A DNA stretch of 64,000 nucleotides, from IMG/VR virus record IMGVR_UViG_3300047091_000002, positions 32,001 to 96,000 of that record. One strand, given 5' to 3'. The notes under the pieces are model-generated. The model was given only the letters and a program-made list of their open reading frames with translations. It was not told where the DNA came from and ran no database searches. This document shows positions 2-59,394 of the stretch, piece by piece (the first letter of the stretch is position 1; every line of letters starts with the position of its first letter). Made by a program: the position numbers and the translations under genes. Source of the stretch: a virus.

Positions 2-211
2 TCGGAGTATAATTATTGGCGTTACCTAAATATTGATTCTATTATAATTCCTCAAGTAGATTCGTGGGATGAAGTTCACGATATATTGGATTTTTATAAA
101 AATAATCCCGTAAAATTGCAACAAGCTGCAAATTTAGCAGGTTCTTGGTGGCTCAACTATAAAAGAAATCTCGTAAATAATTTGATATGCGACATAAATC
201 AACTAAAGTAA
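2..211 (+). CDS. 3' end of a CDS truncated by the window edge; possibly glycosyltransferase/exostosin-like
   Basis: Open frame from base 2 (SEYNYWRYLNIDSIIIPQVDSWDEV...WWLNYKRNL...NQLK*) to TAA at 209-211; lies next to GT genes; function is a guess. Confidence 0.4.
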   Translation, partial: SEYNYWRYLNIDSIIIPQVDSWDEVHDILDFYKNNPVKLQQAANLAGSWWLNYKRNLVNNLICDINQLK

Positions 212-954
212 ATAAAAACATTATATACTTACTCAGAAATAATCTAAATGGCAAATTATACATTGGGCAAACTGTTCAAGGATTTTCTGAAAGATGGTCA
301 AAACATAAAAACGCTGCTTTTGGTTCTAGGGGTAGGTCTCTAATACACAAAGCAATTAGGAAGTATGGAAGTGAAAATTTCTCCTCAAGAGAACTTGCTA
401 CCGTAGTATCTACTAATCCTTGTGAGTGGTTGAATATTTTAGAGGTATTTTTTATAAAATATTTTAACAGCGTCCATCCTAATGGATATAACCTACCCTA
501 TGGTGGTAAAAATGAACAGAGAAGTCAAAAAACTAAACAAGCTCTCAGTAAGTCTTTACGTGGAAATACTAATCGAGTAGGAAAGCATCATTCTGAAGAA
601 TCAAAAGAGAAGATAAGAATCTCCAATACTGGGAAAAGGCGGTCTTTACAGGCTCGATTAAATATAAGCAAGGCTCATATCGGATTACCGAGTAACTGGA
701 AGGGCAGAAAACACTCGGAAGAAACTCGTTTAAAAATGAGTAGAGACAGAAAAGGTAAACGGATTGGAGAAAAACGAAAACCGCATACAGCAGAAACAAA
801 AGCCCTGTTAAGAAGCTTAAATCTTGGTAGAGTCCCACCTAATAAAGGTGTTCCCATGTCACCGGAACAGAGATTAAAGGTAAGCATTGCAAAGAAGAAA
901 TATTTTGCTGAGAAACGACTGCGGGAGCAACTAGATGCAAATTCAAAATCCTAA
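187..954 (+). CDS. GIY-YIG homing endonuclease with NUMOD3-type repeats
   Basis: IIYLLRN..NGKLYIGQT and NGYN motifs; repeated HSEE(S/T)K/R-K(I/M)S motifs in the C-terminal half. Confidence 0.9.
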   Translation: MRHKSTKVNKNIIYLLRNNLNGKLYIGQTVQGFSERWSKHKNAAFGSRGRSLIHKAIRKYGSENFSSRELATVVSTNPCEWLNILEVFFIKYFNSVHPNGYNLPYGGKNEQRSQKTKQALSKSLRGNTNRVGKHHSEESKEKIRISNTGKRRSLQARLNISKAHIGLPSNWKGRKHSEETRLKMSRDRKGKRIGEKRKPHTAETKALLRSLNLGRVPPNKGVPMSPEQRLKVSIAKKKYFAEKRLREQLDANSKS

Positions 955-6159: not shown

Positions 6160-6556
6160 ACTTTGTGCTTTAAATAAGAAACATTTTGCTGCTCAAGATT
6201 TTCTTATATCTGAACCCATGATTTCAATTGCAAGTATTGATTCTGCAAAAATCATAGGAAATATAAACCGGAAATTCGTGAATTTATGCAGTCTGCAAGA
6301 TTGGGGAGCAATTTCTGATTTGCCAGAAATAACCTTAGACATGGCTACTAGAGCAGCAAATGTTAAAATAAATTTTTCCAGAATAGAGCCATTGAGTATA
6401 CCTTTATCTCCATTTGATTCTGCTGGCTCTTATATTAATGCTATATCTTATAACTGCTTATTATACAAAACCGATTCAAGTAATATAACACTTAGAAAAA
6501 TATTAAATCTATACCGTTCCTTTATTAATTACGTCTACGTATATTACAAATTATAA
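6128..6556 (+). CDS. hypothetical protein; last gene of the + strand block
   Basis: Its stop abuts the stop of the convergent - strand gene at 6556/6557. Confidence 0.55.
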   Translation: MNDILETQIIKLCALNKKHFAAQDFLISEPMISIASIDSAKIIGNINRKFVNLCSLQDWGAISDLPEITLDMATRAANVKINFSRIEPLSIPLSPFDSAGSYINAISYNCLLYKTDSSNITLRKILNLYRSFINYVYVYYKL

Positions 6557-7381
6557 TTACGGAACTCTTTTAAGTATAAAGTACAATTTGCCAAATTGGT
6601 ATGCTGGCTCTAAAATATATTTAACTGCTCTCCAAGTTTTATTCCAGAAACCATGCACCGGGACTGGATAAAAACTGTCATGTATAAATTTTCTTGTATC
6701 TGTACTTATTCCATGTAAATCTTCTGTAACTCCCGATAGATTAGTTCCTATAGGAGTATAGGCTTTAATTAATCCGTCTGAGTCAATAACGACTGCATTG
6801 AGATTTGAGAGAAGTTCTGCGACTTGGGGTGTCGTAGCCTCGACTAGAGTAGAAAATCCCTTAGAACCCCGTTCTAGCGCCATTACAGCCCCTTGTAGAT
6901 GCGGAGTAGTTTCTTCTATAGCCCGATCTACGTGAAGTATTACTCCAGTCAGGGCTGTACCGTTATTATTTAGTTGTTTAGTTCCCTCTTCTATAAGATT
7001 ACGACTGGCAACTAAATTAGTATCTAAAGTCAACATTCTTTGCTGAACACTGAATGAAATTGATCTGAGTTCAATTCTAGCATCACCTACAAAACCAACT
7101 AATTCGTTTTCTACACGGGTAAGACCTTCTACAGTATCACGACTTCCTTTAGCAACGGCACGAACCTCCTGAATAGTTCCCGTAAGTTCATCTAGGGCAA
7201 TATTTAATTTGGCTGAACTTGCTCCTGCAATATTATTGGCATTACGCCAAGACCATAATGCCCATATCAGCATCAAGCCAATCAAAACAGTTATAGCAAA
7301 ATATCCAGCTTCTCTATAAGTCCGAAATCTCTGTTTGCTTGTCTCAAGATGTTCTCTAACTAAATCTGTATTCTCGCTCAT
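6557..7381 (-). CDS. membrane-anchored coiled-coil protein (MCE-helical/spanin-like)
   Basis: N-terminal TM (YFAITVLIGLMLIWALWSW), long heptad-like helical region, Trp/Tyr-rich amphipathic C-terminus. Confidence 0.6.
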   Translation of the reverse strand: MSENTDLVREHLETSKQRFRTYREAGYFAITVLIGLMLIWALWSWRNANNIAGASSAKLNIALDELTGTIQEVRAVAKGSRDTVEGLTRVENELVGFVGDARIELRSISFSVQQRMLTLDTNLVASRNLIEEGTKQLNNNGTALTGVILHVDRAIEETTPHLQGAVMALERGSKGFSTLVEATTPQVAELLSNLNAVVIDSDGLIKAYTPIGTNLSGVTEDLHGISTDTRKFIHDSFYPVPVHGFWNKTWRAVKYILEPAYQFGKLYFILKRVP

Positions 7382-8661
7382 TATAACTCCAATTTGTACT
7401 GAAATGCCGGAATAACCCTATTATACGTAGGATCATTATCTGCCTCTTTAAGACTGGATAATCTCATATCTCCTACTGGATATTGACGAGTGGATTCAAC
7501 AATCCACTGCGCTATCGGAGTTTGCAATTGCCCAATCGATTGGGCAAAAGTATCAGCTCCATTCATAGGAGGATTGATAAATAAATGTACTCCATTAGAT
7601 AGCAAGGCATAAAGTCCAAAATGTACGTGCCCTACATAAACAATTTGAGCCTTTTCCGCATCGTTTCTACAAGCATTGAATTTATCTATTTGCGTAGAGA
7701 TTGCCTCAATAGGAACTACCTTAGCAGGATTCCCAGTATTAAACACTGTATCCCCGTGCAGAATTAATACATTATGATCAAAGACTTTATAAGTAGTATA
7801 AGGAGTTAAGGGTTGATGAAAATAAAGTCTTTCTTCTTTACGAAATGCTTCTCTAACTATTTCCATTATAATAGTTAAAAAAGAATCGTACTTTTGGCTT
7901 CTGGCTCTTTCCCTACCTTTAACAGTGGTAATCATTCTATCGTGATTACCCGGAGATACAAATACATTGATCTGCGGATAATAATCTAATTCATAATCTA
8001 ATAGAGCAATAAGGTATCTAGCAGTACCTAGAACTTGCCAAGTAATAGGATCAATATTATGATCTTCTGCATGAATTAGACCTTGTATTTGATCTCCGTC
8101 AATATTTAGATTGAGTCCACCGCATTCTTTTCTATGATCTAACTTATAATTCGCAAGTTCAACTGCAAATTTTCCTAGTCTTCGAGCAGCAATTTCCCAA
8201 TTAAAAGCATTTCCTTCTACTTCTCTAGGATCTATAGTGCAACCAAAATGATTATCCGATAAATGTCCCGTAACAAATCTTTCCACTTTTTCCGGTTTAG
8301 GAATATAGACTTTTTTTCTAGTAGATACTTGTATGGGCTGCTCTTTAAGAGCATCAATAACGGATTGTTTAAATTTATCTAATCTATGAAGCTCAGTTCC
8401 AAGTTCCTTTTCAAGTCTGCTTACGTACTTATTTCTTTCCTGAGTACCTCTAATAGCTCCAAGATCCTTAAGACATTCACTACCAAACACGTCTTTTACA
8501 AATGAACTAAAGCTACCGAACCTCTTCCTAAATTCCCATTCTCCATATTGCCCTCCACCTTTTTCATATCTGGAAAAAGTCATATCATAAGATTCAAATT
8601 CAATTGCTTTTGCAGATTTACGTACATCCTCGATAAGATTTTCGTATGTAACTTTACTCAT
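7381..8661 (-). CDS. calcineurin-like metallophosphoesterase
   Basis: SDNHFG, DGDQIQG, PGNHDR, LHGD, GHVH motifs. Confidence 0.85.
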   Translation of the reverse strand: MSKVTYENLIEDVRKSAKAIEFESYDMTFSRYEKGGGQYGEWEFRKRFGSFSSFVKDVFGSECLKDLGAIRGTQERNKYVSRLEKELGTELHRLDKFKQSVIDALKEQPIQVSTRKKVYIPKPEKVERFVTGHLSDNHFGCTIDPREVEGNAFNWEIAARRLGKFAVELANYKLDHRKECGGLNLNIDGDQIQGLIHAEDHNIDPITWQVLGTARYLIALLDYELDYYPQINVFVSPGNHDRMITTVKGRERARSQKYDSFLTIIMEIVREAFRKEERLYFHQPLTPYTTYKVFDHNVLILHGDTVFNTGNPAKVVPIEAISTQIDKFNACRNDAEKAQIVYVGHVHFGLYALLSNGVHLFINPPMNGADTFAQSIGQLQTPIAQWIVESTRQYPVGDMRLSSLKEADNDPTYNRVIPAFQYKLEL

Positions 8662-13528: not shown

Positions 13529-16500
13529 TATATCAAATATCCGAATAAATCTACTTTTAGTGTTGCTGCACTACCAAATGCACTATTTACTTTTAATTGA
13601 ACCTTAAATCCAGAATTAATTAATTCTCCAGTTGCTATATTAGCAGAAGTATCCGTGTATATAATTTGTTTATATACTGCGCTGCTTGTAAAATATGCTG
13701 CTATATCAGCATTCGTTAAATTACTCGATGTTTCTTCATTTACGGTTCTGAATGATGCGGAAAGAGTCGTGAGATCTGTACTGGGACTTCGTAGAATTAT
13801 TCTAGTTAATACAAGTGTTTTTCCAATCGGCACTGTATAGGCATCCTGCAAGGATGTGGTATTAACATCCAAAATAAATCCGTTTACTAAAATTTGCTCT
13901 GTTGGCGTATCAGACCAGGATAAAATTACATCCCCACTAGATGGTGCAGCAGCCTTGAGAAATTGTCCTGCGGACGGATCATTTGTAGGTAATGTAAAAA
14001 TTAATGCGTTGGTAGCATTTCCGGCTCGGATTGATGTTAAATTAGTTGTTGACGAATTAGCTAACTTAAGTAAACCTGTCTGGGTTGATACTACTCCAAC
14101 CTGGATTGAGGTATTGATTGTCGGAGTCTGAGAAAAACTAGGCGCTCCTGCGTTAGCTGTTAATATACTATTAGCAGCACCTTGAGAAGTAACTTGAATT
14201 GCCGAGGTAGAATTACCATATAAAACACCATTAGATGTAAATGTGGTAGTTCCAGTACCACCTTGTCCTACTACGATACCAGCAGTAGCAGACAACTCAG
14301 TTGTAGTAATTGCCGATAATCTCGCCAGTGGAACAGTGCCCGATCCTAGATCAGATGCAGAAAGAATCGCCCATAAAGCATCTGTTCCATCACTTCTTAA
14401 ATACCTTGCGCTAGAACCTAATGCAAGTCTAACATCATTAGTGCCATCATTAACTATTAAATCACCACGAGTAGTAGTAGGACTTAATGCATCGAATGCA
14501 GCAGTTTGAGTAGATTGACCAGTTCCACCACGAGAAATTGCTAATTGCCCTGACCAACCTAACGTATGCGTAGAGCTAACACTTGTTATAGTAACATTTG
14601 TATCATCTACAAATGTTTGAGTAGATGCAGTTAAACCGTTGAAACTTGTAACTATTGAACTTGCGCCTACAATTATTTCCGAAGAATCGGAAAATAACAT
14701 AACAGCTTCTGTAGCACCTCCCCCATCATCTCTAATAAAAAATCTAGCTTTATTAGCTGCTGGAGCAGATGGAGTAGACATTTCAGTAAACTCTAATGCT
14801 GCACCTGCTACGGCTGGATTCGTAAGAGCAAGAATGCCGGCAGCACTTCGGATAAGTCGCAAGTCAGAACTTCCACCCGAAGCAGATGTAGAACTCCATT
14901 GGAAGTAGGCTGCCGCTTTCTGGGCTATTCCACTTGCATCAATTCTTACATCATCTCCACCAGCAGTTCCTATATTAAAAAAATTAGTTATTACTGACGA
15001 AACGCCCACAAAAGAATATGCATAAGCAGAACAATAATCGCTATCATCAGCAAGTCTAAACCATATAGTAGCAGATTCTCTTTTTATTGCAGGAAACGCA
15101 CTTGATGTACCACCAAATAGTAGCATATCAAAATTGTTACCCGCGTTATTTAACAGGGTTAATTTACTATCAGCAGAGGATTTAATCTGGGATCTGGATG
15201 AAAATATAGATGCTCCGGTAGAAGCCAATGTAAGACTAGAAAATGTAGGAGAGCTAGAAGTTCCAATATCTTGCGAGGTGCCGATAACTACCGACCCTCC
15301 TAAAGATACTGGACTTCCAGAAATCGAAATTTGATTTGTTACTCCCGTTATTGTAATACTAGAGTTTGCAAGTTTAGAGTTGGCTATTGCAGCACTGGAA
15401 TTAATATCCGCATTAAGTATAGAATTTCCTAAACTTAATTTTGAGTAAGCTATCGCAGCGGAAGCACTTACATCAACATTTACTACTGATTTATTCAATA
15501 TAGATGTATAATCTATAGTACCAGTAACAATTACTCCATCGGCATCCACTATAAACTTATCTACTGGGCTGCCAGCCATATCAGTAATATGTATAAGATT
15601 TCCTGTAAATCCTCCTATAGGCACTCTACCACTGAAAAGTGGTCCCGTAGTAAGACTATTACCTATTAAATCGAAGACTGGTTCATCTGTTGCGCTGCCA
15701 TGAATAATCAAAACATCTGCTAATCCGCCCTTAACTATTTTAAAGTATTCTCCATAGTATATCAAATCCATTCCAATAGGGCTATATGACCATAACAAGT
15801 CCTTGAAGGTTGATCCTAAACTATTATAGATAATTAGTTGAGAACCTCCTCCAATACTAATAGAGAAGTCTGTATTAGCAACAGCACTTAATAGATTGGC
15901 TGTGATGCCAGTCTTATCGTTAAGTTTGATTAAATCCAGATATGTAGAGTCATCGAAACTATATTGAAATTTCCACGTTACGTGCTGCTCTCCACCCTCT
16001 ACAACCGGAACAAGATACGTTCTAACATATGAAGTTGTATCGGCGGCTGGACTACCTTCTACATTCCAAGCATGCCCTGTAAATTTAATTGCTGGAGAAT
16101 ATTGCTGATCTACTAACGCCGTAGAAGGAGTATTATTTTCAAGAGATAGTGCATACGTGGGAGTTTCAGCAATTGCATTTTTTATAATAGTTTGAACTAG
16201 ATTAAATACATTAGCAGTGTTCTCAAAAGCTACATTTGAACTAAGTCTTGCATCTGCGAGAGTTCCAGTAGTTAAATCAGTGGCACTACGAGTTGCTAAA
16301 TCGGCTAAACTAGATCCAGATTTAGATATTTTAGTCCAGGCTATTGCGGCTGCGTTATCTATTTGACTATTAGTAATTCCAGCTAAACGATTTACACTTA
16401 AAGTTCCAGATTGAATATCCGCTGCATCTATAGCAGTCCAAGCAGATGTACCTGTTCCAGTTCCCTTTAAGAATATTCCAGAGGTAGGAGTAGAACTTCC

Positions 16501-16854
16501 TGTGCCTAATTTAGTTTCTGCTGCGATAATCGCAAGAGAATGAATCATATGATGAACAGATACTATAAATAACTCTACCGAAACACCGGATGCGTGACTT
16601 ACTACTGTCGTACTATCTCTACCCCTAACAACATCTAAAAAGTGCGTAGAATCTTTTGATCCATAATAACAGATTTCAGTATTATTTATAGTAATTGCAC
16701 CAGTAGCAGGAAATGAAGACGTGCTGGATACTGTAATAATGGTATCAGTATCGCTATGAGAACCATTAAGCGTAGTAGTAGCATTATTACGAGTCTCTTG
16801 CAGCGATGAATTAGTATCAAGAGAGGTCGGGAAATTAGGAGTATCTGTTGGCAT
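13528..16854 (-). CDS. tail fibre / receptor-binding protein
   Basis: 1108 aa, very rich in G/S/T/A; fibre motifs (AAIAxSKL repeats, GGTG, LAISRGGTG); directly after the tail tip genes. Confidence 0.8.
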   Translation of the reverse strand: MPTDTPNFPTSLDTNSSLQETRNNATTTLNGSHSDTDTIITVSSTSSFPATGAITINNTEICYYGSKDSTHFLDVVRGRDSTTVVSHASGVSVELFIVSVHHMIHSLAIIAAETKLGTGSSTPTSGIFLKGTGTGTSAWTAIDAADIQSGTLSVNRLAGITNSQIDNAAAIAWTKISKSGSSLADLATRSATDLTTGTLADARLSSNVAFENTANVFNLVQTIIKNAIAETPTYALSLENNTPSTALVDQQYSPAIKFTGHAWNVEGSPAADTTSYVRTYLVPVVEGGEQHVTWKFQYSFDDSTYLDLIKLNDKTGITANLLSAVANTDFSISIGGGSQLIIYNSLGSTFKDLLWSYSPIGMDLIYYGEYFKIVKGGLADVLIIHGSATDEPVFDLIGNSLTTGPLFSGRVPIGGFTGNLIHITDMAGSPVDKFIVDADGVIVTGTIDYTSILNKSVVNVDVSASAAIAYSKLSLGNSILNADINSSAAIANSKLANSSITITGVTNQISISGSPVSLGGSVVIGTSQDIGTSSSPTFSSLTLASTGASIFSSRSQIKSSADSKLTLLNNAGNNFDMLLFGGTSSAFPAIKRESATIWFRLADDSDYCSAYAYSFVGVSSVITNFFNIGTAGGDDVRIDASGIAQKAAAYFQWSSTSASGGSSDLRLIRSAAGILALTNPAVAGAALEFTEMSTPSAPAANKARFFIRDDGGGATEAVMLFSDSSEIIVGASSIVTSFNGLTASTQTFVDDTNVTITSVSSTHTLGWSGQLAISRGGTGQSTQTAAFDALSPTTTRGDLIVNDGTNDVRLALGSSARYLRSDGTDALWAILSASDLGSGTVPLARLSAITTTELSATAGIVVGQGGTGTTTFTSNGVLYGNSTSAIQVTSQGAANSILTANAGAPSFSQTPTINTSIQVGVVSTQTGLLKLANSSTTNLTSIRAGNATNALIFTLPTNDPSAGQFLKAAAPSSGDVILSWSDTPTEQILVNGFILDVNTTSLQDAYTVPIGKTLVLTRIILRSPSTDLTTLSASFRTVNEETSSNLTNADIAAYFTSSAVYKQIIYTDTSANIATGELINSGFKVQLKVNSAFGSAATLKVDLFGYLI

Positions 16855-51129: not shown

Positions 51130-51582
51130 TCATTTAATTGTTCCGTATTGTTTAAGTCTGCCGATGATCTTATCATAACATATCTCTGAACAGGCAAGAA
51201 TAGATGCAATTCCCTCTGAATTTTCCTGCTTATAGCATACCCAATCTCGTTCAGAAGAATACTTATTTGCTACAGCCTTAGTACCAAGTTCAAAAATTCC
51301 GCATTCAGCGCAGATAAACATTTTATTTATGTAGGAAAATCTCTCAGGATAAAGAGACCTTATTGTGGTATCTCTAATACCCTCGAATTCATCATCCTTT
51401 ACTAAACCAAATTTAACGTGTGGATGTAAATAATCCGTAATAAATCTGTAGTCATTTTGTAATTTTATATTATCTAAACTCATAATTCCCCTTTTCCAAA
51501 CTTTTCCGCCCCTATCTCCAATAAAGTATTCCCTATAGCAGAAAGCGTAACTAATAGAAGAAGAAAGATAATTAGTTCCCAA
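51130..51582 (-). CDS. hypothetical protein (likely start MSLDN; CxxC motifs)
   Basis: CAECG...CSEICY. Confidence 0.5.
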   Translation of the reverse strand: MGTNYLSSSISYAFCYREYFIGDRGGKVWKRGIMSLDNIKLQNDYRFITDYLHPHVKFGLVKDDEFEGIRDTTIRSLYPERFSYINKMFICAECGIFELGTKAVANKYSSERDWVCYKQENSEGIASILACSEICYDKIIGRLKQYGTIK

Positions 51583-51671
51583 TCCGGTAAGCCCCCGTCA
51601 ATACCAAATAATATAATAGTGAAAATAAGGACCGCATCTATAAACCATCTAAGAATTCTATATTTAAACAC
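51480..51671 (-). CDS. small two-TM protein, leaderless
   Basis: GTG 6 nt after the -10 box. Confidence 0.55.
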   Translation of the reverse strand: MFKYRILRWFIDAVLIFTIILFGIDGGLPDWELIIFLLLLVTLSAIGNTLLEIGAEKFGKGEL

Positions 51672-51677
51672 TATGAT

Positions 51678-51706
51678 ATTATAACATAATTAAATTAATT
51701 TGTCAA
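51678..51706 (-). promoter_or_regulatory. perfect sigma70 consensus promoter
   Basis: TTGACA-17 nt-TATAAT with extended -10 TG. Confidence 0.8.
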
Positions 51707-51719
51707 GTATTAAAGTGCA

Positions 51720-52930
51720 ATATTTAAAACTTTTGAAAAGTATAGAAAATATATTAGGAAAATATCGAAATGTGTGAAGTGCCTAATCTTATCTAATTCT
51801 AAATTTCTATCTAAACTTAACAAAATCCAACATTTAGAAAGATTAAAATCGATAAGCATTTATTTAGAGAGACAGTGAAGACTTTTGATAAACCTTTCTC
51901 GCCACAATACCCTTAATATTTATATATATTTTATATAAGATTAGAGCAATTTATATACCAGGTTGATGTGGCTAGTGAGAACTTTCTCTTTCAGAGAAAG
52001 AGCGTTTTTGTTCCTTTGTTTTCTATACCTTAATCAATACTGACTGGTAGGTAGGTAGAACTACCGTTTGGTAGGTGATTATATATGTTGATATATATAG
52101 AGTTATAAAGCGTTTAGTAGATGATACATAGGTGTGGGAATAAGGTATATATAGTTCTATTATGAAACATAAGAGAATAAATATAATAGAATGAATATGT
52201 TAGATAAAGCCTAACATATATTTATCTACTACATTTGTAGTTAGTTGCACAATAATGCAGCACTACTCTGCGATGAGAGGGTGTCATTTATGTTGAGGTT
52301 TTTGATGTTTTTCTAAAAATAGATGTGCAGGAGTATAATGATAAAATCGGGTGCTTAGAAAGATATATAAATATCATAAGTATATGATAATAAATAAGAT
52401 AATGAATAAATAAATATAATAAGATAGACTAGATGCATTGAGAAGTAGACAGAGTATTAGAGTATCATATCTCTATAGCTATATACTACTATCTATCTAA
52501 GTATAAGAAAATAAAGAAGTAAGTATAATAAAAGAAAATAGATATAAATATCGTAAATATAAGAAAAGAATAGAGATAATAGAAATAGAGTGAATGTAGA
52601 CAGTACATATCCTTATCTATTCGGTATATTATATGGTACTAACTAGGAAAGTATATCTATATAGTTTGGTATATGGTTCATGCTGTATCTTGTGGCGTGT
52701 ATAGGGCTATGTAATTGTTATACATCCTTATCTGCTTACTATCTTGTAGAGTGTGCATTGTGATGTGTAAGGCAGTATGATTATACTGCTATACTCTCTA
52801 TAGCATGTGCAGTGCATAGATGTTGTTATCTATAGGGTATATCCGTATATGCTATGGTGGGCCAGTGTGTTGTAGCCCTTATATGTCCTATATAGAGGAA
52901 TAGTTCTATTGAGCTTGTGTTGTATACGTT
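51720..52930. other. AT-rich non-coding strand-switch region (candidate genome end, origin or pac region)
   Basis: No ORF of 60 aa or more; divergent promoters flank it; C-poor purine tract at ~52330-52600. Confidence 0.5.
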
Positions 52931-52936
52931 TTTATA

Positions 52937-52966
52937 TTGACATTCCCTTATACTCTATGTTATACC
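52937..52966 (+). promoter_or_regulatory. sigma70-like promoter
   Basis: TTGACA-18 nt-TATACC with TG upstream of -10. Confidence 0.5.
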
Positions 52967-53004
52967 CTTTATTCGGTTCTAAATTTTAGGTTGGAGGGTA
53001 GGAA

Positions 53005-53142
53005 ATGAACAATCAGTGTGCAGCAGTTATTCTAGTTTTAGTAGCAATCGTCGTTGTGTGGGGCGATATTCTTATTCATAACAGCAAGGTGGTAAGGGTG
53101 GCAGGTAAGGGTAGCGCAGGCAGTAAGTATAGCAAAAGATAG
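53005..53142 (+). CDS. 45-aa single-TM peptide (not in ORF track)
   Basis: RBS GGAGG; MNNQCAAVILVLVAIVVVWGDILIH...; own promoter and terminator. Confidence 0.55.
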   Translation: MNNQCAAVILVLVAIVVVWGDILIHNSKVVRVAGKGSAGSKYSKR

Positions 53143-53173
53143 TTGTAGGTCAATAAATTCTCATCGAATGTAT

Positions 53174-53203
53174 AGGCTAGGCTATCGCAGTCTAGCCTTT
53201 TTT
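53174..53203 (+). terminator. intrinsic terminator (AGGCTAG family)
   Basis: AGGCTAG...CTAGCCT-TTTTT. Confidence 0.75.
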
Positions 53204-53797
53204 GTGTCTACTCGACTATTTTAGCTGCGTTAGCTTAAACTGCGTTAGCATCTTTAGTTTGTAAGCCTGTAATTAGTAATGTCTAATCTATTAGTATTAC
53301 AGTATCATCGTTCCTGTAATTCCCTTTTCAGTAAGTCTATATCTCTTGTGTCACACTATATAAGATTTATTTATTTAGTGTATAAGGTTTATATAGAAAA
53401 CCGGGGATTTATCGCATTATCGGACTCAAGTTAAGTTGTTCATTCTAAAGGTAGTTAGGGGAAGTGCAAAAAAGGGTATACCGCAGTACCCTCTACATCT
53501 GGGCTTTGATGAGTCTACTATATTAGTTTCTATCAGTTACAAGGGTTTCAACAGGAAAAGGGCAAGTTGTGGAAAACTCGTTACAGGGCATCCTAGAGCG
53601 TTTTTTCTGGCATTATAGTTGCTTCGCGTGTGCGCGTTCTATTCTACTCTATTTCGAGATAATAAGATGTAATTTGTAAAACAGGATATATCTCTTACAA
53701 AGTAGTTTGTAAGTATCTATCAAGAGTACAGAGGTTACTTCAAGTTCCTTGAGCAAGTGCTATGCCAATTATTTTTATATATTCCTTTATTTTTTGC

Positions 53798-53825
53798 TTG
53801 ACATTAGTTTGAATCTGTAGATAAT
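53798..53825 (+). promoter_or_regulatory. sigma70-like promoter
   Basis: TTGACA-16 nt-GATAAT. Confidence 0.5.
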
Positions 53826-54097
53826 AGGGGCTGTCGCAGGAAAGCGGCAAAATCGAGCAAGGCGCGGGGAGCGCAAGGATTTGAATAAACCAAGTGGCTT
53901 GCGCGATTAACTCGAAAGGGTGAAAGGCAAGTTTAGAATAAAGGTTTGTAACTTGCGAAGTTGTTTACTGGCTAGACTTTGATTCGCTTAGATGTTCGAT
54001 TCTAACCGATGAAATCCGCAAGTAAAAGATAGATAAAATGCAACCAGTATCTACAGTATTTAATAAAAGAAAAGGCTAGGCGCAAGTCTAGCCTTTT
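53826..54097 (+). ncRNA. candidate ~270-nt structured ncRNA or leader
   Basis: ORF-free, GC-richer, several hairpins (CTC-GAAA-GGG inside CTTGC/GCAAG; TTAGA-TGTTCGAT-TCTAA); bounded by a promoter and a terminator. Confidence 0.5.
54070..54097 (+). terminator. intrinsic terminator (AGGCTAG family, GCAA loop)
   Basis: AAAAGGCTAGGC-GCAA-GTCTAGCCTTTT. Confidence 0.8.
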
Positions 54098-54106
54098 GGG
54101 GTTGTT

Positions 54107-54298
54107 ATGGTCAAAAGTGAGATCAAAAGAGGGATGCGAGTATATGATTGCCGGTCAATGCGATATGGTATCGTATTGGCGGTTTTTTCTTCTAGTGTGA
54201 AACTGAGACTTGAGGATAGACAAGGCGAGGTTAGAAAGTATCCTCTTGAGACTGTTTCCTCAGTTTCGACTATAAGTAAAGAGAGGGTAATTCTATGA
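54107..54298 (+). CDS. small SH3/KOW-like protein
   Basis: IKRGMRVYD...YGIVLAV...VKLRL; ATGA coupling to the next gene. Confidence 0.55.
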   Translation: MVKSEIKRGMRVYDCRSMRYGIVLAVFSSSVKLRLEDRQGEVRKYPLETVSSVSTISKERVIL

Positions 54299-55323
54299 AT
54301 AAAAATGCTAGAAAAAAGGCATATAAGGCGAGTGAAGAAAAGAGCTTGCATACTCGCAAGATAGTACCCTCAGAGGGTATATCAGCTATTTTAGTTGATA
54401 AGCAAGTAGCGGCAAGCATAAAGCGAATAGTAAATGATAAGGTAGATACCGCGCTACTTCGTGAGCGCATAGGGCTATTTTCTCGATTAGATAAGATTAG
54501 TTTTGAATCTTCTTTCGCTTTGCAAGTAAAATCACTTAAGGTAATATTATTTGCCTCAGATGGTTCGAGTAGGCGTATCGGAGCGGGAAGGCGTAATGAT
54601 GTACTTAGTATGTCTTATAAGCCTAATGCGGGTTCGCATCAAAGGGGTGATACGCACAGGCGAGAATGGACAGAGCTTAAAAAACTAAATGTTCATACAC
54701 CCTCTAAGCTCTTAACCCGCTCTGCTCTAATAGATGCAGAGTTTTTGACTGCTAGGGTGGAAGGCAAATTGATTGAATTTTTATCGGGATCAATGAGGGC
54801 AATTACCCTTGCCACTTCGGGCAATAACGTAGCGGTATCGGGAAGTCAATATAATGACTTTCAATTAATTCGCAAACGCAAGGGCAATAAGCAATTAGCA
54901 AGCAAGTCGGATGCGGGGGGATTTGTATATCACTCCAAATTTGAATATAGCGGACCTATTAACGCAGAAGGGGAACGGGGAACCATAATCGGTATCCCTG
55001 CTGGCAGGCGTAAATTTGATAAAGAAGGTAATAAAATTGAGTACGCCAGCGATGAACCAGAATTGCCTGTTGATTTATCAACTAAAACTATCCCTGAATC
55101 TAAATCAAGGGTGGGCAACGCAAGGAAAGAAATTCGATTTGGCAAGGCTGATACCCGCAAACCGGCGGTGGGGGCTGATCCTGCGAAGTTAGATTATTAT
55201 CGCAGAATAGATAAAGAATCGGCTTTGCGCGAATCAAAATTGATTGTAGCGTCACTTGTTGCGCGTTCTTCAATCGAGATTGTTTTAACTCTTTTAGCTA
55301 CTCAAATTAACCTATTTGAGTAA
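54295..55323 (+). CDS. orphan basic early protein
   Basis: 342-aa ORF rich in K/R/S. Confidence 0.65.
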   Translation: MNKNARKKAYKASEEKSLHTRKIVPSEGISAILVDKQVAASIKRIVNDKVDTALLRERIGLFSRLDKISFESSFALQVKSLKVILFASDGSSRRIGAGRRNDVLSMSYKPNAGSHQRGDTHRREWTELKKLNVHTPSKLLTRSALIDAEFLTARVEGKLIEFLSGSMRAITLATSGNNVAVSGSQYNDFQLIRKRKGNKQLASKSDAGGFVYHSKFEYSGPINAEGERGTIIGIPAGRRKFDKEGNKIEYASDEPELPVDLSTKTIPESKSRVGNARKEIRFGKADTRKPAVGADPAKLDYYRRIDKESALRESKLIVASLVARSSIEIVLTLLATQINLFE

Positions 55324-55375
55324 ATGTTGCGATAGTCTCTAAAGAGTCAGTTAGTACAGTAGAATACCCTCTCTT

Positions 55376-55408
55376 ATGCCTAGACTCTTAAATGAGTCTA
55401 GGCATTTT
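55376..55408 (+). terminator. intrinsic terminator
   Basis: ATGCCTAGACTC / GAGTCTAGGCAT 12-bp stem, then TTT. Confidence 0.8.
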
Positions 55409-55454
55409 GTATTGAGTAGTCCTTTGATTACTCTAATTTAACTTAAAAAGGAAA

Positions 55455-56462
55455 ATGAACCCTATGACTAATGAAGTGAACAACTTAACAGATGCAAGCG
55501 CATCTGAGGTAACTAACAATGCAACAGAACAGAAGAAAACTCCTAAACCAGCGAAGCAAGTAACCCAATCTCAACCTAGCCTGATGGAACGGGCTATCGG
55601 ATATTGCAGGCAGCTTGATAAAGAAATCAAGAGAGAGGGGAAGGCTGGCGCAGGGATTAGCCGCGATGCGGCGATTGCAGAGACTCAAGAGAGTATGCGG
55701 TTGATGTTTGCAATTACCGTGCTAGGTACTTTCGCGACTGTCGCAAAGCTTTTCAGGCAATATCACACTAGACTCAAATCAGAGGTAGAAAACTTTGATG
55801 AAGGTCTATTCTGGAAGGATGATAAGATTGCTCAAGAGATAATCAACCGGGCATCAAGCTCGATTGATACTGAGCTTAACGGTACGCCTAAATTGACTAA
55901 AGAGGGCACTGTTAAATACAAGCGTGATAAGGTAGTGTCACGCCTAGCTAACATAGTTGCCCCCTTGATTCAATTAGGAATTAGGTCAGAGGATATTATG
56001 CTACGTCTAATGCTCAAGATGAAATTGGACTCTAGCGCCGATTTCGCAAAAGCATTAGATACGGTAGTTAGAGGGTGTGAATTGTTTCGTCCGGTTTACT
56101 CAGCCGTGCGGTATCTCAAATATGCGGGTCTAATTGTTGCAAAGAAGGAAGATAAACAGCAAGAATTTGACTTGTACAGAGTGATTGCGAATCGGGCTGA
56201 CATTGATGGATTGACAAGTCAAGGGGCTGCAAATGCGCTTAATGATGTAGTCAATACCGCGTATCAGTTTTTTACAAAAGAGCCGTCGAAGATACTTACT
56301 CCTGAGCAAGTTGCGTTCGTAGTGGAACAAGTAAATGCTCATAACGCAGGAGTTAGAGCGAGAATTCAGAAGGGAGAGAAGAAAGCGGACATCCCTAGCC
56401 TGTTGTGGGAAAATGTCAAGCTGGCAAAGTCTAACGCCGCGAGCGCTGGCACAAATGCGTAA
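55455..56462 (+). CDS. orphan helical early protein
   Basis: 335 aa; RBS AAGGA. Confidence 0.7.
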   Translation: MNPMTNEVNNLTDASASEVTNNATEQKKTPKPAKQVTQSQPSLMERAIGYCRQLDKEIKREGKAGAGISRDAAIAETQESMRLMFAITVLGTFATVAKLFRQYHTRLKSEVENFDEGLFWKDDKIAQEIINRASSSIDTELNGTPKLTKEGTVKYKRDKVVSRLANIVAPLIQLGIRSEDIMLRLMLKMKLDSSADFAKALDTVVRGCELFRPVYSAVRYLKYAGLIVAKKEDKQQEFDLYRVIANRADIDGLTSQGAANALNDVVNTAYQFFTKEPSKILTPEQVAFVVEQVNAHNAGVRARIQKGEKKADIPSLLWENVKLAKSNAASAGTNA

Positions 56463-56497
56463 GTAATCAAGGGTAAATCACTACAAGTAGACCGTTT

Positions 56498-56529
56498 AAG
56501 GTTAGGTACTGAGAAGTATCTAGCCTTTT
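56498..56529 (+). terminator. intrinsic terminator (GAGA loop)
   Basis: AAGGTTAGGTACT-GAGA-AGTATCTAGCCTT-TT. Confidence 0.75.
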
Positions 56530-56707
56530 GCGGTTGAATAGTTTGATTGAATGCTCCCGTTTAGGCGATACTTTGCAACAACTAAGCAACAAGTCTAAGT
56601 TGAATTCTAGCTATAGGTTACGAATAAGTTAACTAGATAGCAGATTCTAAAATGATTAGTTTGTGTGCGGGTATCGCCTATTACTAAATTAGTGAAGGAG
56701 GAAGAGT

Positions 56708-56854
56708 ATGCCTGAGAACTTTGAAAGCAGTTTAGTATCTGAATTTACTCAAAACTGGATTGACGATCTACAGGCTAAGATTAAAGCAAAAGGACTCAAT
56801 CCAAATATGGTTAGGTACGTATGCGAAGATTGCGACCAGAATTCTTACGCATAA
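56708..56854 (+). CDS. 48-aa protein with CxxC (not in ORF track)
   Basis: RBS AAGGAGG; MPENFESSLVSEFTQNWIDDLQ...YVCEDCDQNSYA*. Confidence 0.55.
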   Translation: MPENFESSLVSEFTQNWIDDLQAKIKAKGLNPNMVRYVCEDCDQNSYA

Positions 56855-56911
56855 GGGGGGTAAGCTATGAAACCAAGCTGCGGGGTTTTAATTTCTGACT
56901 AACAGAATAAA

Positions 56912-56939
56912 ATGTAGAGGGTAACAGTACCCTCTACAT
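56912..56939 (-). terminator. hairpin terminator of the PD-(D/E)XK gene
   Basis: ATGTAGAGGGTA / TACCCTCTACAT 12-bp stem; TTTT follows on -. Confidence 0.7.
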
Positions 56940-57353
56940 AACATCAAAATTTGAAGGTATATACATAATTTCGTTTTTATTATCGGGAAAGACTAACGCC
57001 AAAACATCGTATTTAGTTGTATTTACTGGCTTTGCATAGGTTATCTTTCCCTTATGAGATATTCTTGCGGTTTTAATTTCTATTCTATAGAGTTGGTCAT
57101 TTTTTTGCGCTATGATGTCAGCAGAACAAGACGGGGAAACAGCCCTAAAAACCTCGAACCCTCTATGAAGTAGATCAGCGCACACTATTAACTCGGACGC
57201 AGCCCCCGTACTAGCTGGCGTACTGGCAGATATTGTAAGCGGTTTAGGAAGCGCGTAACTTAGAGATTTACACTTTTTAGTACAAAAAAGTTGTCGGTAT
57301 TTATATACAGATTTGTATTGCTTACCGCAATTTTTACAAGATTTGTAAAACAT
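56934..57353 (-). CDS. PD-(D/E)XK endonuclease with N-terminal Zn finger (homing-endonuclease-like)
   Basis: CKNC...FCTKKC; GAASELIV...GFEVF...ADIIA...RIEIKT. Confidence 0.8.
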   Translation of the reverse strand: MFYKSCKNCGKQYKSVYKYRQLFCTKKCKSLSYALPKPLTISASTPASTGAASELIVCADLLHRGFEVFRAVSPSCSADIIAQKNDQLYRIEIKTARISHKGKITYAKPVNTTKYDVLALVFPDNKNEIMYIPSNFDVM

Positions 57354-57359
57354 TTTAAT

Positions 57360-57388
57360 ATTTTATCACAGTTACAGCGATTTGTCAA
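57360..57388 (-). promoter_or_regulatory. sigma70-type promoter for the PD-(D/E)XK gene (leaderless)
   Basis: TTGACA-17 nt-TAAAAT with TG; ATG 6 nt after -10. Confidence 0.8.
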
Positions 57389-57405
57389 ATACGTTTGGGA
57401 CATCT

Positions 57406-57437
57406 AGGCAAGGTATCTAATACGGTATCTTGCCTTT
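57406..57437 (+). terminator. terminator-like hairpin
   Basis: AGGCAAGGTATC / GGTATCTTGCCT then TT. Confidence 0.6.
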
Positions 57438-57564
57438 AAGCATTGCTAGGTTTGTTTGTAGGTTAGTTACTAATGAAAGTGAGGTATCTATATGCTGCCC
57501 TAGATAATCTGCGGTTGCGAGATTAAAAAGGCATACAAACAAAGAATACAATTTTAACGCAATT

Positions 57565-57595
57565 GGCAAGGTGGATTTATTCTATCTTGCCTTTT
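57565..57595 (+). terminator. terminator-like hairpin
   Basis: GGCAAGGTGGA / TCTATCTTGCC then TTTT. Confidence 0.65.
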
Positions 57596-57729
57596 GCTGT
57601 CGCTAGGTTCGATTTTAAGAGGTTTTTACTTCTAGAATGAATCTTTCCTAGTCTAAGGCGCAACGATTCGTTAAAAACGATTCTAGCGCATTTATTAACA
57701 TACTCTATGCCTATAGATATTTTCTAGGG

Positions 57730-59312
57730 TATAGGGTTTAACCGATTCTGCAATATCGGAAAAATTGCAATGCTAAACACTCTTTATCGAAGTGGCGGAA
57801 AGCACGTTAGCGGGACGCTGACCCTTATTCGCAAGCATTATAAGTAAATCGGTTATGTCAGAGTAACGAGTCAGATCAATGACGTTCAACACAATTGACT
57901 GTGATATTTGACTTGCTGATTAATCCATTAGCGACGTATAGGGCAAGGGCTGATTACGTTAAGCTATAAAGTTTTGTTATTGACCGGAGATGACCGAGGC
58001 CACATTGTAAAATGAGGGTACACGCTACCTCCCAACGCAGTGACGAAGGAAAACTGCGTTCAAGATGCGACGAAAGCACCTTGTCTCAATAACAAATCAG
58101 GCAATACCCGTGAAGTGGTGGAGTAGTCGGTTCTAGGTTGGAAGTAGAAGGAAACTTCTATATAATATCTAGTGACGCTGGCAAAGAGTGGCAGAGGGAA
58201 ATTAAATATAAATTTTCTTTATAGGGGCTGCCCTTCCTAGCTATAGGGTTTAACCCGTCGTAAGTAGTATAAAAAACGACAAGATACAGCCGTCACTTTA
58301 GGTTCCTAGAACATAGACAAAATTACATAGACAGGATTTCGTGAATGCTATGGCTACTCACGAAACTAGGGACTTTTATTCCTAGTAGTACGAGATTGAC
58401 GACCGGGGCGTGTCTCATTTAGCAATCGGTATGTTTATTATAGAGAATTGCATATTGAGCGTGTGAACGTGTGTGTCGTCAACCGAACGGCTACCTTATG
58501 TGATAGTTAAAAAAGCCTAGTCAGATAGTCCAATAGATGTAAAACTGCGTAATCACGGAGTACCGACTGGTACTCTAGCTGGCAAAACCTTAGTGAGATA
58601 TGTAATTGAGCATATCAAAACTCTTTGTACCTAGTTTCGTGGTCGTTGCGCGTTCTTTTTTGTAGCATCATGCGAGGATAAAAAAGAACAAGTTTAAGAA
58701 ACCTACGCAGTTTTACTAAATTAGTCAATCGTGAAATCTTCGTGATTCCAGATAACATGCTGGGCGAGATTACTCGTTGCTATAACTCATAGTGTGACGA
58801 GACTCGATAAATGATTGACTAATTTAGTCACATCGAGCGATAATAGAGTATATAACTCTGGAGCTTGGACCTAATCACTGACGATAAACTCTATGATTAG
58901 CGGGTAGAACGCGAATGCCCGAATAGCCGATAGCTGCGGATCAATTGTAATGGATAGTCATCAAGGATTTTCCACCTCTTAAACTCCTGGATTCTCCGTA
59001 TACATCCCCATATGACTATCTGTTTCAGTTGATCCATATGCGACGAAGGCTTAATTTGCGCGTCGTTTCTTGATTCATCTAAAAGAAACGTTACAACCAG
59101 ATGACAACCTACCTTAGATTATTCTCTATTAACCTCAAAGTTCCCTGTAATGCAGTCTCAAAGTTCCTTAGCGATTTGAAAAGACATTTCGGATAGATTT
59201 ATTCTATCGGAATTAACGATAAACGATTACAGTGATTTGAGTACAATTCAGATAACTATATTAGTTATTGGAGCTAACGACAAGTTAATATGGTAATTTA
59301 AGGTAGGTTGAA
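57730..59312 (+). ncRNA. candidate giant (~1.6 kb) multi-domain structured ncRNA; may be more than one RNA
   Basis: No ORF of 60 aa or more on either strand; more than 15 nested helices verified by eye, including 13-bp, 16-bp and 11-bp long-range stems; GAAA tetraloop; G-U pairs favour + strand; ends 11 nt before tRNA-Glu. Confidence 0.7.
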
Positions 59313-59321
59313 AGATAATTT

Positions 59322-59394
59322 GGGGCTATGGACAAGTGGTTAAGTCGTTTCCCTTTCAAGGAAAAGATCGAGGGTTCAAATCCCTCTAGCCCTA
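59322..59394 (+). tRNA. tRNA-Glu(TTC)
   Basis: Cloverleaf: GGGGCTA/TAGCCCT acceptor, GAC/GTC D stem, TTTCC-CTTTCAA-GGAAA anticodon arm, GAGGG-TTCAAAT-CCCTC T arm; no encoded CCA. Confidence 0.92.

Follow-up and report, generated by a model that had tools for sequence, protein, structure and literature searches.

Introduction

Phages and prophages encode GOLLD and ROOL, two kinds of large non-coding RNA with an elaborate fold; both typically lie beside tRNA genes and have no known protein partner (PMC12286853). In phage K, two abundant long non-coding RNAs (lncRNAs) adjoin tRNA genes (PMC9241854). At the DNA level, phage T5 carries untranslated inverted-repeat regions of 0.2-1.2 kb at the inner end of its first-step-transfer DNA; these regions, which also abound in palindromes, are defined by paired DnaA boxes inside the inverted repeats and by direct repeats, and one of them is split by the insertion of an endonuclease gene (10.1101/866236). 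Here we describe a stretch of 1,968 nt free of open reading frames (ORFs), positions 57354-59321, which lies between a minus-strand endonuclease gene and a tRNA-Glu gene in a 64,000-nt window (bases 32001-96000) of the 119,487-bp virus record IMGVR_UViG_3300047091_000002, classed as complete; feature coordinates are window positions unless stated otherwise. Besides lacking coding capacity, the stretch is self-complementary beyond chance, runs in the same direction as tRNA-Glu and adjoins it, and matches no known RNA family; therefore, a new structured RNA locus is the leading reading. In its specific form, which we hold with slightly less than even confidence, the stretch is a plus-strand, early-transcribed non-coding RNA locus of a family outside Rfam.

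Like GOLLD and ROOL, the stretch belongs to a phage (a complete 119-kb virus), has a tRNA gene (tRNA-Glu, 11 nt downstream) at its end and is dense in helices. Unlike them, it has about twice their length, gives no match to their covariance models and is built of consecutive, locally closed domains that contain long perfect duplexes and are not joined by long-range closure, whereas GOLLD and ROOL adopt a compact pseudoknotted fold. With the lncRNAs of phage K, a large virulent Kayvirus, it shares being uncatalogued and tRNA-adjacent; it differs from them in showing no sequence similarity to any phage-collection record. Structured segments released by host processing enzymes occur in T7 early transcripts (RNase III) and in the T4 tRNA cluster (species 1 and 2). 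By analogy, the long duplexes and the directly abutting tRNA of the present locus may offer the same processing logic, whereas the T7 and T4 elements are single hairpins or RNAs of ~140 nt and the stretch is a 1.6-kb array.

GOLLD and ROOL, RNAs of still unknown function, build cage-like assemblies, and each independent tRNA-adjacent family helps to reveal traits common to such RNAs. If the locus described here encodes an RNA, its larger size and its different build, in which stem-closed modules with long duplexes follow one another, would widen the known range of size and form of viral non-coding RNAs and suggest roles in early infection. We regard it as a credible but unproven example of a large phage RNA beside a tRNA, outside every described family.

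The stretch is non-coding

A sequence-only reading of this DNA had claimed that no ORF of 60 amino acids (aa) or more exists on either strand for ~2 kb, and this holds for 57354-59375, where no start-codon ORF of at least 60 aa was found on either strand. The longest plus-strand open frame in the stretch comprises 40 codons. Recoding TAA, TAG or TGA singly opened no long frame, and an alternative genetic code was rejected on this ground. A PHROG search with the ten longest stop-to-stop peptides returned nothing better than an E value of 0.02; since these peptides match no phage protein family, a pseudogene remnant was rejected as well. Just two small ORFs with a ribosome-binding site are present (25-26 codons, weak sites), neither of which is convincing. 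The stretch is thus non-coding in all six frames and under recoding. Its GC content is 0.39-0.43, compared with 0.30-0.36 in the other gaps of this AT-rich genome, and also exceeds the genome mean. The same reading had called the genome otherwise gene-dense, which is partly true: a second gap of 2.5 kb (51583-54087) lies at the strand switch, beyond which the early and middle genes form a long rightward block.

Long inverted repeats and excess folding energy

All 12 helices proposed in the sequence-only reading are Watson-Crick complements at their coordinates, and those listed there with 13, 16 and 11 bp in fact reach 13, 16-18 (58715-32/58811-28) and 17-19 bp (59105-23/59292-310). Some of the listed helices compete with alternative pairings. 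The stretch contains six perfect inverted repeats of at least 10 bp (span up to 300 nt), whereas 145 other genomic windows of equal size average 1.0 and never exceed 4; of repeats of at least 12 bp, it contains four, compared with an average of 0.08 and at most 1 in those windows. Moreover, this 1.6 kb holds 5 of the 36 repeats of at least 11 bp found genome-wide. Compared with the rest of the genome in windows of equal size, long perfect inverted repeats are therefore about ten times as frequent here.

When the whole region was folded with pairs limited to a 400-nt span and compared with dinucleotide shuffles, the minimum free energy of the plus strand was -461.5 kcal/mol versus -373 kcal/mol in the shuffles (z about -10). 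The z-score is -9.0 for 58531-59321 and -3.4 for 57730-58720. A composition-corrected scan of the genome in 397 windows of 600 nt placed 7 of the 13 strongest excess-folding windows within 56.5-59.5 kb, and the excess folding energy of the stretch is the largest in the genome. Folding thus goes beyond both the shuffles and the genomic background.

Strand preference

The imperfect helices contain five G-U pairs and no A-C pair when read on the plus strand, and the excess folding energy is -88 kcal/mol on the plus strand versus -53 kcal/mol on the minus strand. The earlier suggestion that G-U wobbles favour the plus strand thus receives weak-to-moderate support. The difference between the strands originates in the 3' half, where the excess is -61 kcal/mol on the plus strand and -34 kcal/mol on the minus strand; domains 7 and 8, described below, score better on the plus strand, and domain 2 scores slightly better on the minus strand. 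This asymmetry moderately favours a plus-strand RNA over duplex DNA. A-rich unpaired positions were discarded as an indicator of strand, since shuffles gave identical values.

Domain architecture

The predicted fold comprises about nine domains in tandem, each closed locally, without long-range closure; its strong helices are sequentially arranged and mutually compatible. All domains are given for the plus strand. Domain 1 (57739-57855) is closed by a 9-bp helix, TAACCGATT/AATCGGTTA. Domain 2 (57973-58096) has a perfect 11-bp closing helix and contains two adjacent hairpins, both with GACGAA(A/G) in their loops. Domain 3 (58130-58312), whose fold faces competing alternatives, is closed by 8 bp and contains a GAAA-tetraloop hairpin (58144-58161) and an inner helix (58171-77/58291-97). 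Twin 8-bp hairpins follow (58337-58386), and domain 5 (58396-58482) is closed by the 8-bp helix TTGACGAC/GTCGTCAA. Domain 6 (58539-58716) has a perfect 13-bp closing helix around three or four hairpins, including one of 12 bp (58652-63/58678-89). It is abutted by domain 7 (58715-58828), with a perfect 16-bp closing helix (18 bp with one G-U pair) and folding z-scores of -6.1 on the plus and -4.4 on the minus strand. Domain 8 (58938-59035) is a rod of 10 + 13 bp with three G-U pairs (z -5.1 on the plus and -2.7 on the minus strand), and domain 9 (59105-59310) is an irregular rod of 206 nt with a 17-19-bp closing helix, which ends 11 nt before the tRNA. The stems of 13, 16-18, 23 and 17-19 bp have the length of RNase III substrates, about one to two helical turns.

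The central segment of the twin hairpins (58359-58373) can instead pair with 58627-58641 over 14 of 15 bp. In the folding model, this pairing excludes both local hairpins and runs across the helix that closes domain 6; it would therefore represent a pseudoknot or an alternative state, i.e. a switch.

Pairings that span more than 320 nt occur at chance level (6 observed versus 5.7 in shuffles), and long-range closure of the whole region was rejected. The sequence-only reading had left open whether the region holds an extra-large relative of GOLLD and ROOL, tandem RNAs or a new class; a new structured locus now leads, whereas a single global fold is not borne out by the long-range pairings. The domain chain is a better fit to a processed multi-domain early RNA, or to an array of RNAs, than to one globular giant.

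Two short motifs recur. TATAGGG has four plus-strand copies within 57730-58250, out of 14 genome-wide, and GACGAAR-G has three of its five genome-wide copies in the stretch, two of them in the adjacent hairpin loops of domain 2. A role of TATAGGG as a T7-like promoter was rejected because the sequence upstream of its copies is not conserved. Likewise rejected was an internal tandem duplication, self-similarity being not significant, and the likeness of domain 3 to domain 6 is not significant either (z 1.6).

Known families and homologs

The stretch was scanned with the 4,227 models of Rfam 15, at the gathering score and at E<=10, and the tRNA alone matched. The covariance models of GOLLD (RF01998) and ROOL (RF03087) remained silent even at E<=10, and kinship with these two families, considered in the sequence-only reading, is thus not supported. 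Nor did Rfam return a match to OLE, HEARO, raiA, group I or II introns, RNase P, tmRNA, 6S RNA, or hammerhead and other small ribozymes, so that no known family accounts for the stretch. We obtained no evidence for the earlier ideas of a ribozyme or of self-assembly, and the stretch contains no trace of a pseudo-tRNA.

Searches for relatives of the stretch were likewise negative in phage records and plasmids and in five exact-seed scans of viral and metagenome contigs. Because a TnpB-like transposase of this phage is 65% identical to a protein of an Acidobacteriota metagenome-assembled genome (MAG), 401 Acidobacteriota genomes were included; they gave only two chance-level matches of 26-30 nt. 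Contigs that share a kinase-like gene or module with the phage carry no homolog of the stretch, and contigs that share the 3' half of the tRNA have nothing else in common with it.

The contigs of the nearest relative, whose terminase is 42% identical, have no counterpart of the stretch either; every one of them ends at or within ~2 kb of the strand switch, and exact-protein look-ups showed that they stop inside a homolog (34% identity over 90 residues) of a gene for a 335-aa protein, which in the present phage lies just upstream of the stretch. These assemblies come from at least eight samples of one JGI series and all break at or within ~2 kb beyond the strand switch, with gene content near the breakpoints differing between samples. 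The shared breaks suggest that the early region is hypervariable or that the genome has an end or a long repeat there.

Transcription signals and the proposed RNA

The early genes, the tRNA and all punctuation cassettes (see below) point the same way as the stretch. A weak sigma-70-like promoter candidate lies at 57695-57723 on the plus strand (TTAACA-17-TATTTT, 9/12; or GATATT with a 15-nt spacer), with a predicted start at ~57730. Upstream of it, the plus strand carries two cassettes that combine a hairpin with a T-tract: the first (57407-57460) reads GGCAAG...CTTGCC TTT followed by a conserved tail, and the second (57565-57617) consists of a terminator-like hairpin (57565-57591) followed by the tail TTTTGCTGTCGCTAGGTTCG. 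The second cassette is the probable left boundary of the RNA unit.

Members of the same cassette family also follow earlier rightward units (54070-54110 and 56500-56551), and in a distant relative (L047:31-86) such a cassette precedes the homolog of the 335-aa gene by ~20 nt. Their consensus, found between rightward early units, is a hairpin GGC(A/T)AG...CT(A/T)GCC followed by TTTTGC-GTTG-TAGGTT. Since cassettes follow rightward units and one lies just upstream of the relative's gene, they would punctuate early transcripts rather than act as absolute stops; the conserved cassette may be a processing or partial-termination signal typical of the lineage.

On the plus strand, no terminator was found from 57591 to at least 61000. 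The tRNA-Glu gene (UUC anticodon, 59322-59394, plus strand) follows domain 9 with neither a terminator nor a promoter between them, and small ORFs lie downstream of it. We infer from this layout that one transcript covers both the RNA and the tRNA and that RNase P releases the former.

We propose the following model. After the cassette at 57565-57617, an RNA of ~1.6-1.7 kb would fold into roughly nine domains of 50-206 nt, each closed independently of the others and several of them shut by unusually long, near-perfect duplexes of 13-19 bp. The RNA would be co-transcribed with tRNA-Glu and the small early ORFs downstream, and RNase P, in cutting at the 5' end of the tRNA, would free the upstream RNA and set its 3' end. 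A double-strand-specific nuclease such as RNase III would probably trim or dissect the RNA at its long duplexes. The product, either one large RNA or several stable structured RNAs, may act early in infection, in host takeover or in the evasion of defence.

That some RNA-level function, on the plus or the minus strand, explains the structure is in our judgement probable. It is unlikely that the whole of 57.6-59.3 kb is one functional RNA of ~1.6-1.7 kb, which would be the largest non-ribosomal structured phage RNA known; such an RNA would be made early, freed from tRNA-Glu by RNase P and belong to a family without catalogued relatives, and its rod-like domains and the loop motifs GACGAAR and TATAGGG could dock host proteins or further copies of the RNA itself. 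Two further promoter-led, ORF-free and strongly folding units in the same phage, described at the end, count in favour of an RNA locus.

Discussion

Several observations weigh against a plus-strand early RNA. The strong promoters of this genome follow TTGACAAAT-N-TATAAT, and no strong promoter of the TTGACAAAT type lies directly upstream on the plus strand, the best match being 9/12. Two terminator-like hairpins (57407-60 and 57565-617) precede the region. The 5' half is symmetric, both strands folding equally well. The helices are almost all perfectly Watson-Crick with few wobbles, as in inverted repeats that act at the DNA level or arose recently, and the region has few GNRA or UNCG loops or other features typical of ornate RNAs. 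In addition, the neighbouring coding ORFs also strongly over-fold (delta -60 kcal/mol), and part of the signal may therefore be regional. Local 150-nt z-scores average -1.27 in the stretch, no better than in two neighbouring ORFs (-1.48), and were dropped as a distinguishing mark; the distinctive signal therefore resides in the helices that span 80-270 nt. Finally, no homolog was found in the collections searched. The chance that we give the reading is just short of even.

The most serious rival, which we nevertheless consider unlikely, is a cis-acting DNA element: an untranslated inverted-repeat boundary of the first-entering early DNA, a T5-like injection stop, or a signal for recombination or for the replication of single-stranded intermediates. 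The stretch resembles the T5 regions in that both are kilobase-scale untranslated inverted-repeat DNA in a phage genome of ~120 kb with an endonuclease gene nearby, here at the edge of the region, and restriction-site-poor early DNA. The repeats are nearly perfectly Watson-Crick, as expected of such an element, the GATC-poor segment (51.2-57.9 kb) ends right where the hairpin-dense stretch starts, and a genome end at the strand switch would agree with the repeated breakage of the nearest relative's contigs at this point or just beyond it. In contrast to the T5 regions, however, the stretch has neither DnaA boxes nor direct repeats: the motif TTWTNCACA is absent from 57354-59321 (the window holds 4 matches versus 6.3 expected by chance), no significant direct repeats or iterons were found, and the inverted repeats are spaced arms rather than palindromes. 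With arms 80-270 nt apart, they would be hard to extrude from duplex DNA. The phage itself is unrelated to T5, as a tblastn search of 50,697 phage records gave no match to its terminase. The replication genes are far off (10-17 kb versus ~89-91 kb for the stretch, in whole-genome coordinates), and the GC content is above, not below, the genome mean. The strand asymmetry, which would be unexpected for a palindrome system in DNA, points to RNA. Were the stretch nonetheless a DNA signal at the edge of the first-entering DNA, it would indicate a T5-like two-step entry outside the T5 group.

It is also doubtful, though conceivable, that the stretch is a long structured 5' leader, which would regulate the tRNA and the early ORFs in cis through RNase III sites, attenuation or anti-termination, or the 58359-73/58627-41 switch, and yield no independent RNA product. 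No terminator separates the region from the tRNA and the ORFs, the 13-19-bp duplexes are long enough for RNase III, and RNase III processes T7 early transcripts. The 14/15-bp alternative pairing, in competition with two local hairpins, would suit such a leader, as would the hairpin cassettes between early units, including the one ~20 nt upstream of the relative's gene. However, a leader of 1.6-1.9 kb would be very long for a phage, in which genome size is constrained, the processing sites known from phages are single intergenic hairpins, and nine closed multi-hairpin domains exceed what is needed to regulate one tRNA.

We give little credence to the notion that the stretch is functionless spacer or decayed DNA, whose inverted repeats arose by template-switch (quasipalindrome) mutation or by the decay of genes or tRNA genes. 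The perfection of the helices suggests youth, and the collections searched contain no homolog and the stretch no recognisable RNA motif, as this account would have it. Against it, neither a pseudogene nor a pseudo-tRNA has left a trace, the extreme enrichment of repeats is confined to this stretch, the strong helices are consecutive and mutually compatible, and the GC content is elevated; moreover, phage genomes rarely keep 2 kb of junk.

A functional RNA read wholly or partly from the minus strand is very improbable: the equal folding of the 5' half on both strands, the slightly better score of domain 2 and weak promoter-like (59283-59255) and terminator-like (58294-58275) sites on that strand would accord with it, whereas the G-U to A-C ratio of 5:0, the larger plus-strand excess of the 3' half and the rightward direction of all neighbouring signals and genes except the endonuclease cassette speak against it.

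Additional features of the phage genome

The record encodes a tailed phage with terminase, portal and major capsid genes, and its 127-bp terminal repeat resembles an assembly overlap. The late-gene block occupies 6.5-51.6 kb of the window on the minus strand. The lineage is almost unsampled: among 5.8 billion proteins, the terminase has a single relative at 42% identity, plus three matches of 26-33% over partial length.

The early ORFs at 54295-55323 (342 aa) and 55455-56462 (335 aa) belong to no Pfam or PHROG family, and the mRNA region they cover is the one with the unusually strong excess folding of -60 kcal/mol versus shuffles. The 335-aa protein has no relative of near-full length, and an exhaustive HMMER search with it gave only three weak matches; its relatives are very distant and all lie in fragments of related phages.

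The endonuclease gene at the edge of the stretch (56934-57353, minus strand) is a free-standing PD-(D/E)XK gene that opposes the direction of the early genes, and it has its own strong promoter (57388-57360) and terminator (56939-56912) on the minus strand. Rightward hairpin cassettes flank this unit (56934-57388), which looks like a mobile endonuclease cassette inserted in the early region. The genome holds more endonuclease genes, GIY-YIG-like and HNH (window 187-954; L016:16073-16666; L018:10013-11143).

GATC is depleted in 51170-57870, with 5 sites in 6.7 kb compared with 3.16 per kb genome-wide and none in 51166-54121. The GATC-poor segment runs from the strand switch to 57.87 kb, the point at which the hairpin-dense stretch begins.

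The TnpB-like protein mentioned above is a 368-aa IS605/TnpB-type "transposase" (phrog_506, E 4e-104), encoded before the window at 6279-7385 in whole-genome coordinates. A 673-nt ORF-free gap follows its gene (7631-8303, whole-genome), which is the expected place of a guide (omega) RNA. Its closest relatives, at 65% and 53% identity, are in Acidobacteriota MAGs, a weak hint to the host. One of the contigs with the kinase-like gene belongs to an unrelated phage and is 69.7 kb long; it codes for a Ro60/TROVE protein, next to which ORF-free gaps may possibly hold a Y RNA, and carries a seven-tRNA array (L030:7480-9054, 15890-16518).

Of the two further ORF-free units, one is the first rightward unit (53798-54110), with a near-consensus promoter (TTGACA-16-GATAAT, 11/12) at one end and a bidirectional terminator-like hairpin (54070-54097) at the other. 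It has no credible ORF or Rfam match, its 600-nt window (z -3.7) is among the strongest outliers of the genome, and it is probably a separate early RNA of ~270 nt. The other lies beyond the 64-kb window at 76335-76900 (L016:13335-13900) and starts with a strong promoter, TTGACAAAT...TATAGT (11/12), followed by ~530 nt without plus-strand ORFs, with GC content above that of the surroundings and long hairpins at the end. With a folding z-score of -5.3 (100 shuffles), no Rfam match and a position inside a 3.5-kb GATC-free gap (75724-79197), this unit is a second candidate structured RNA gene of the phage.

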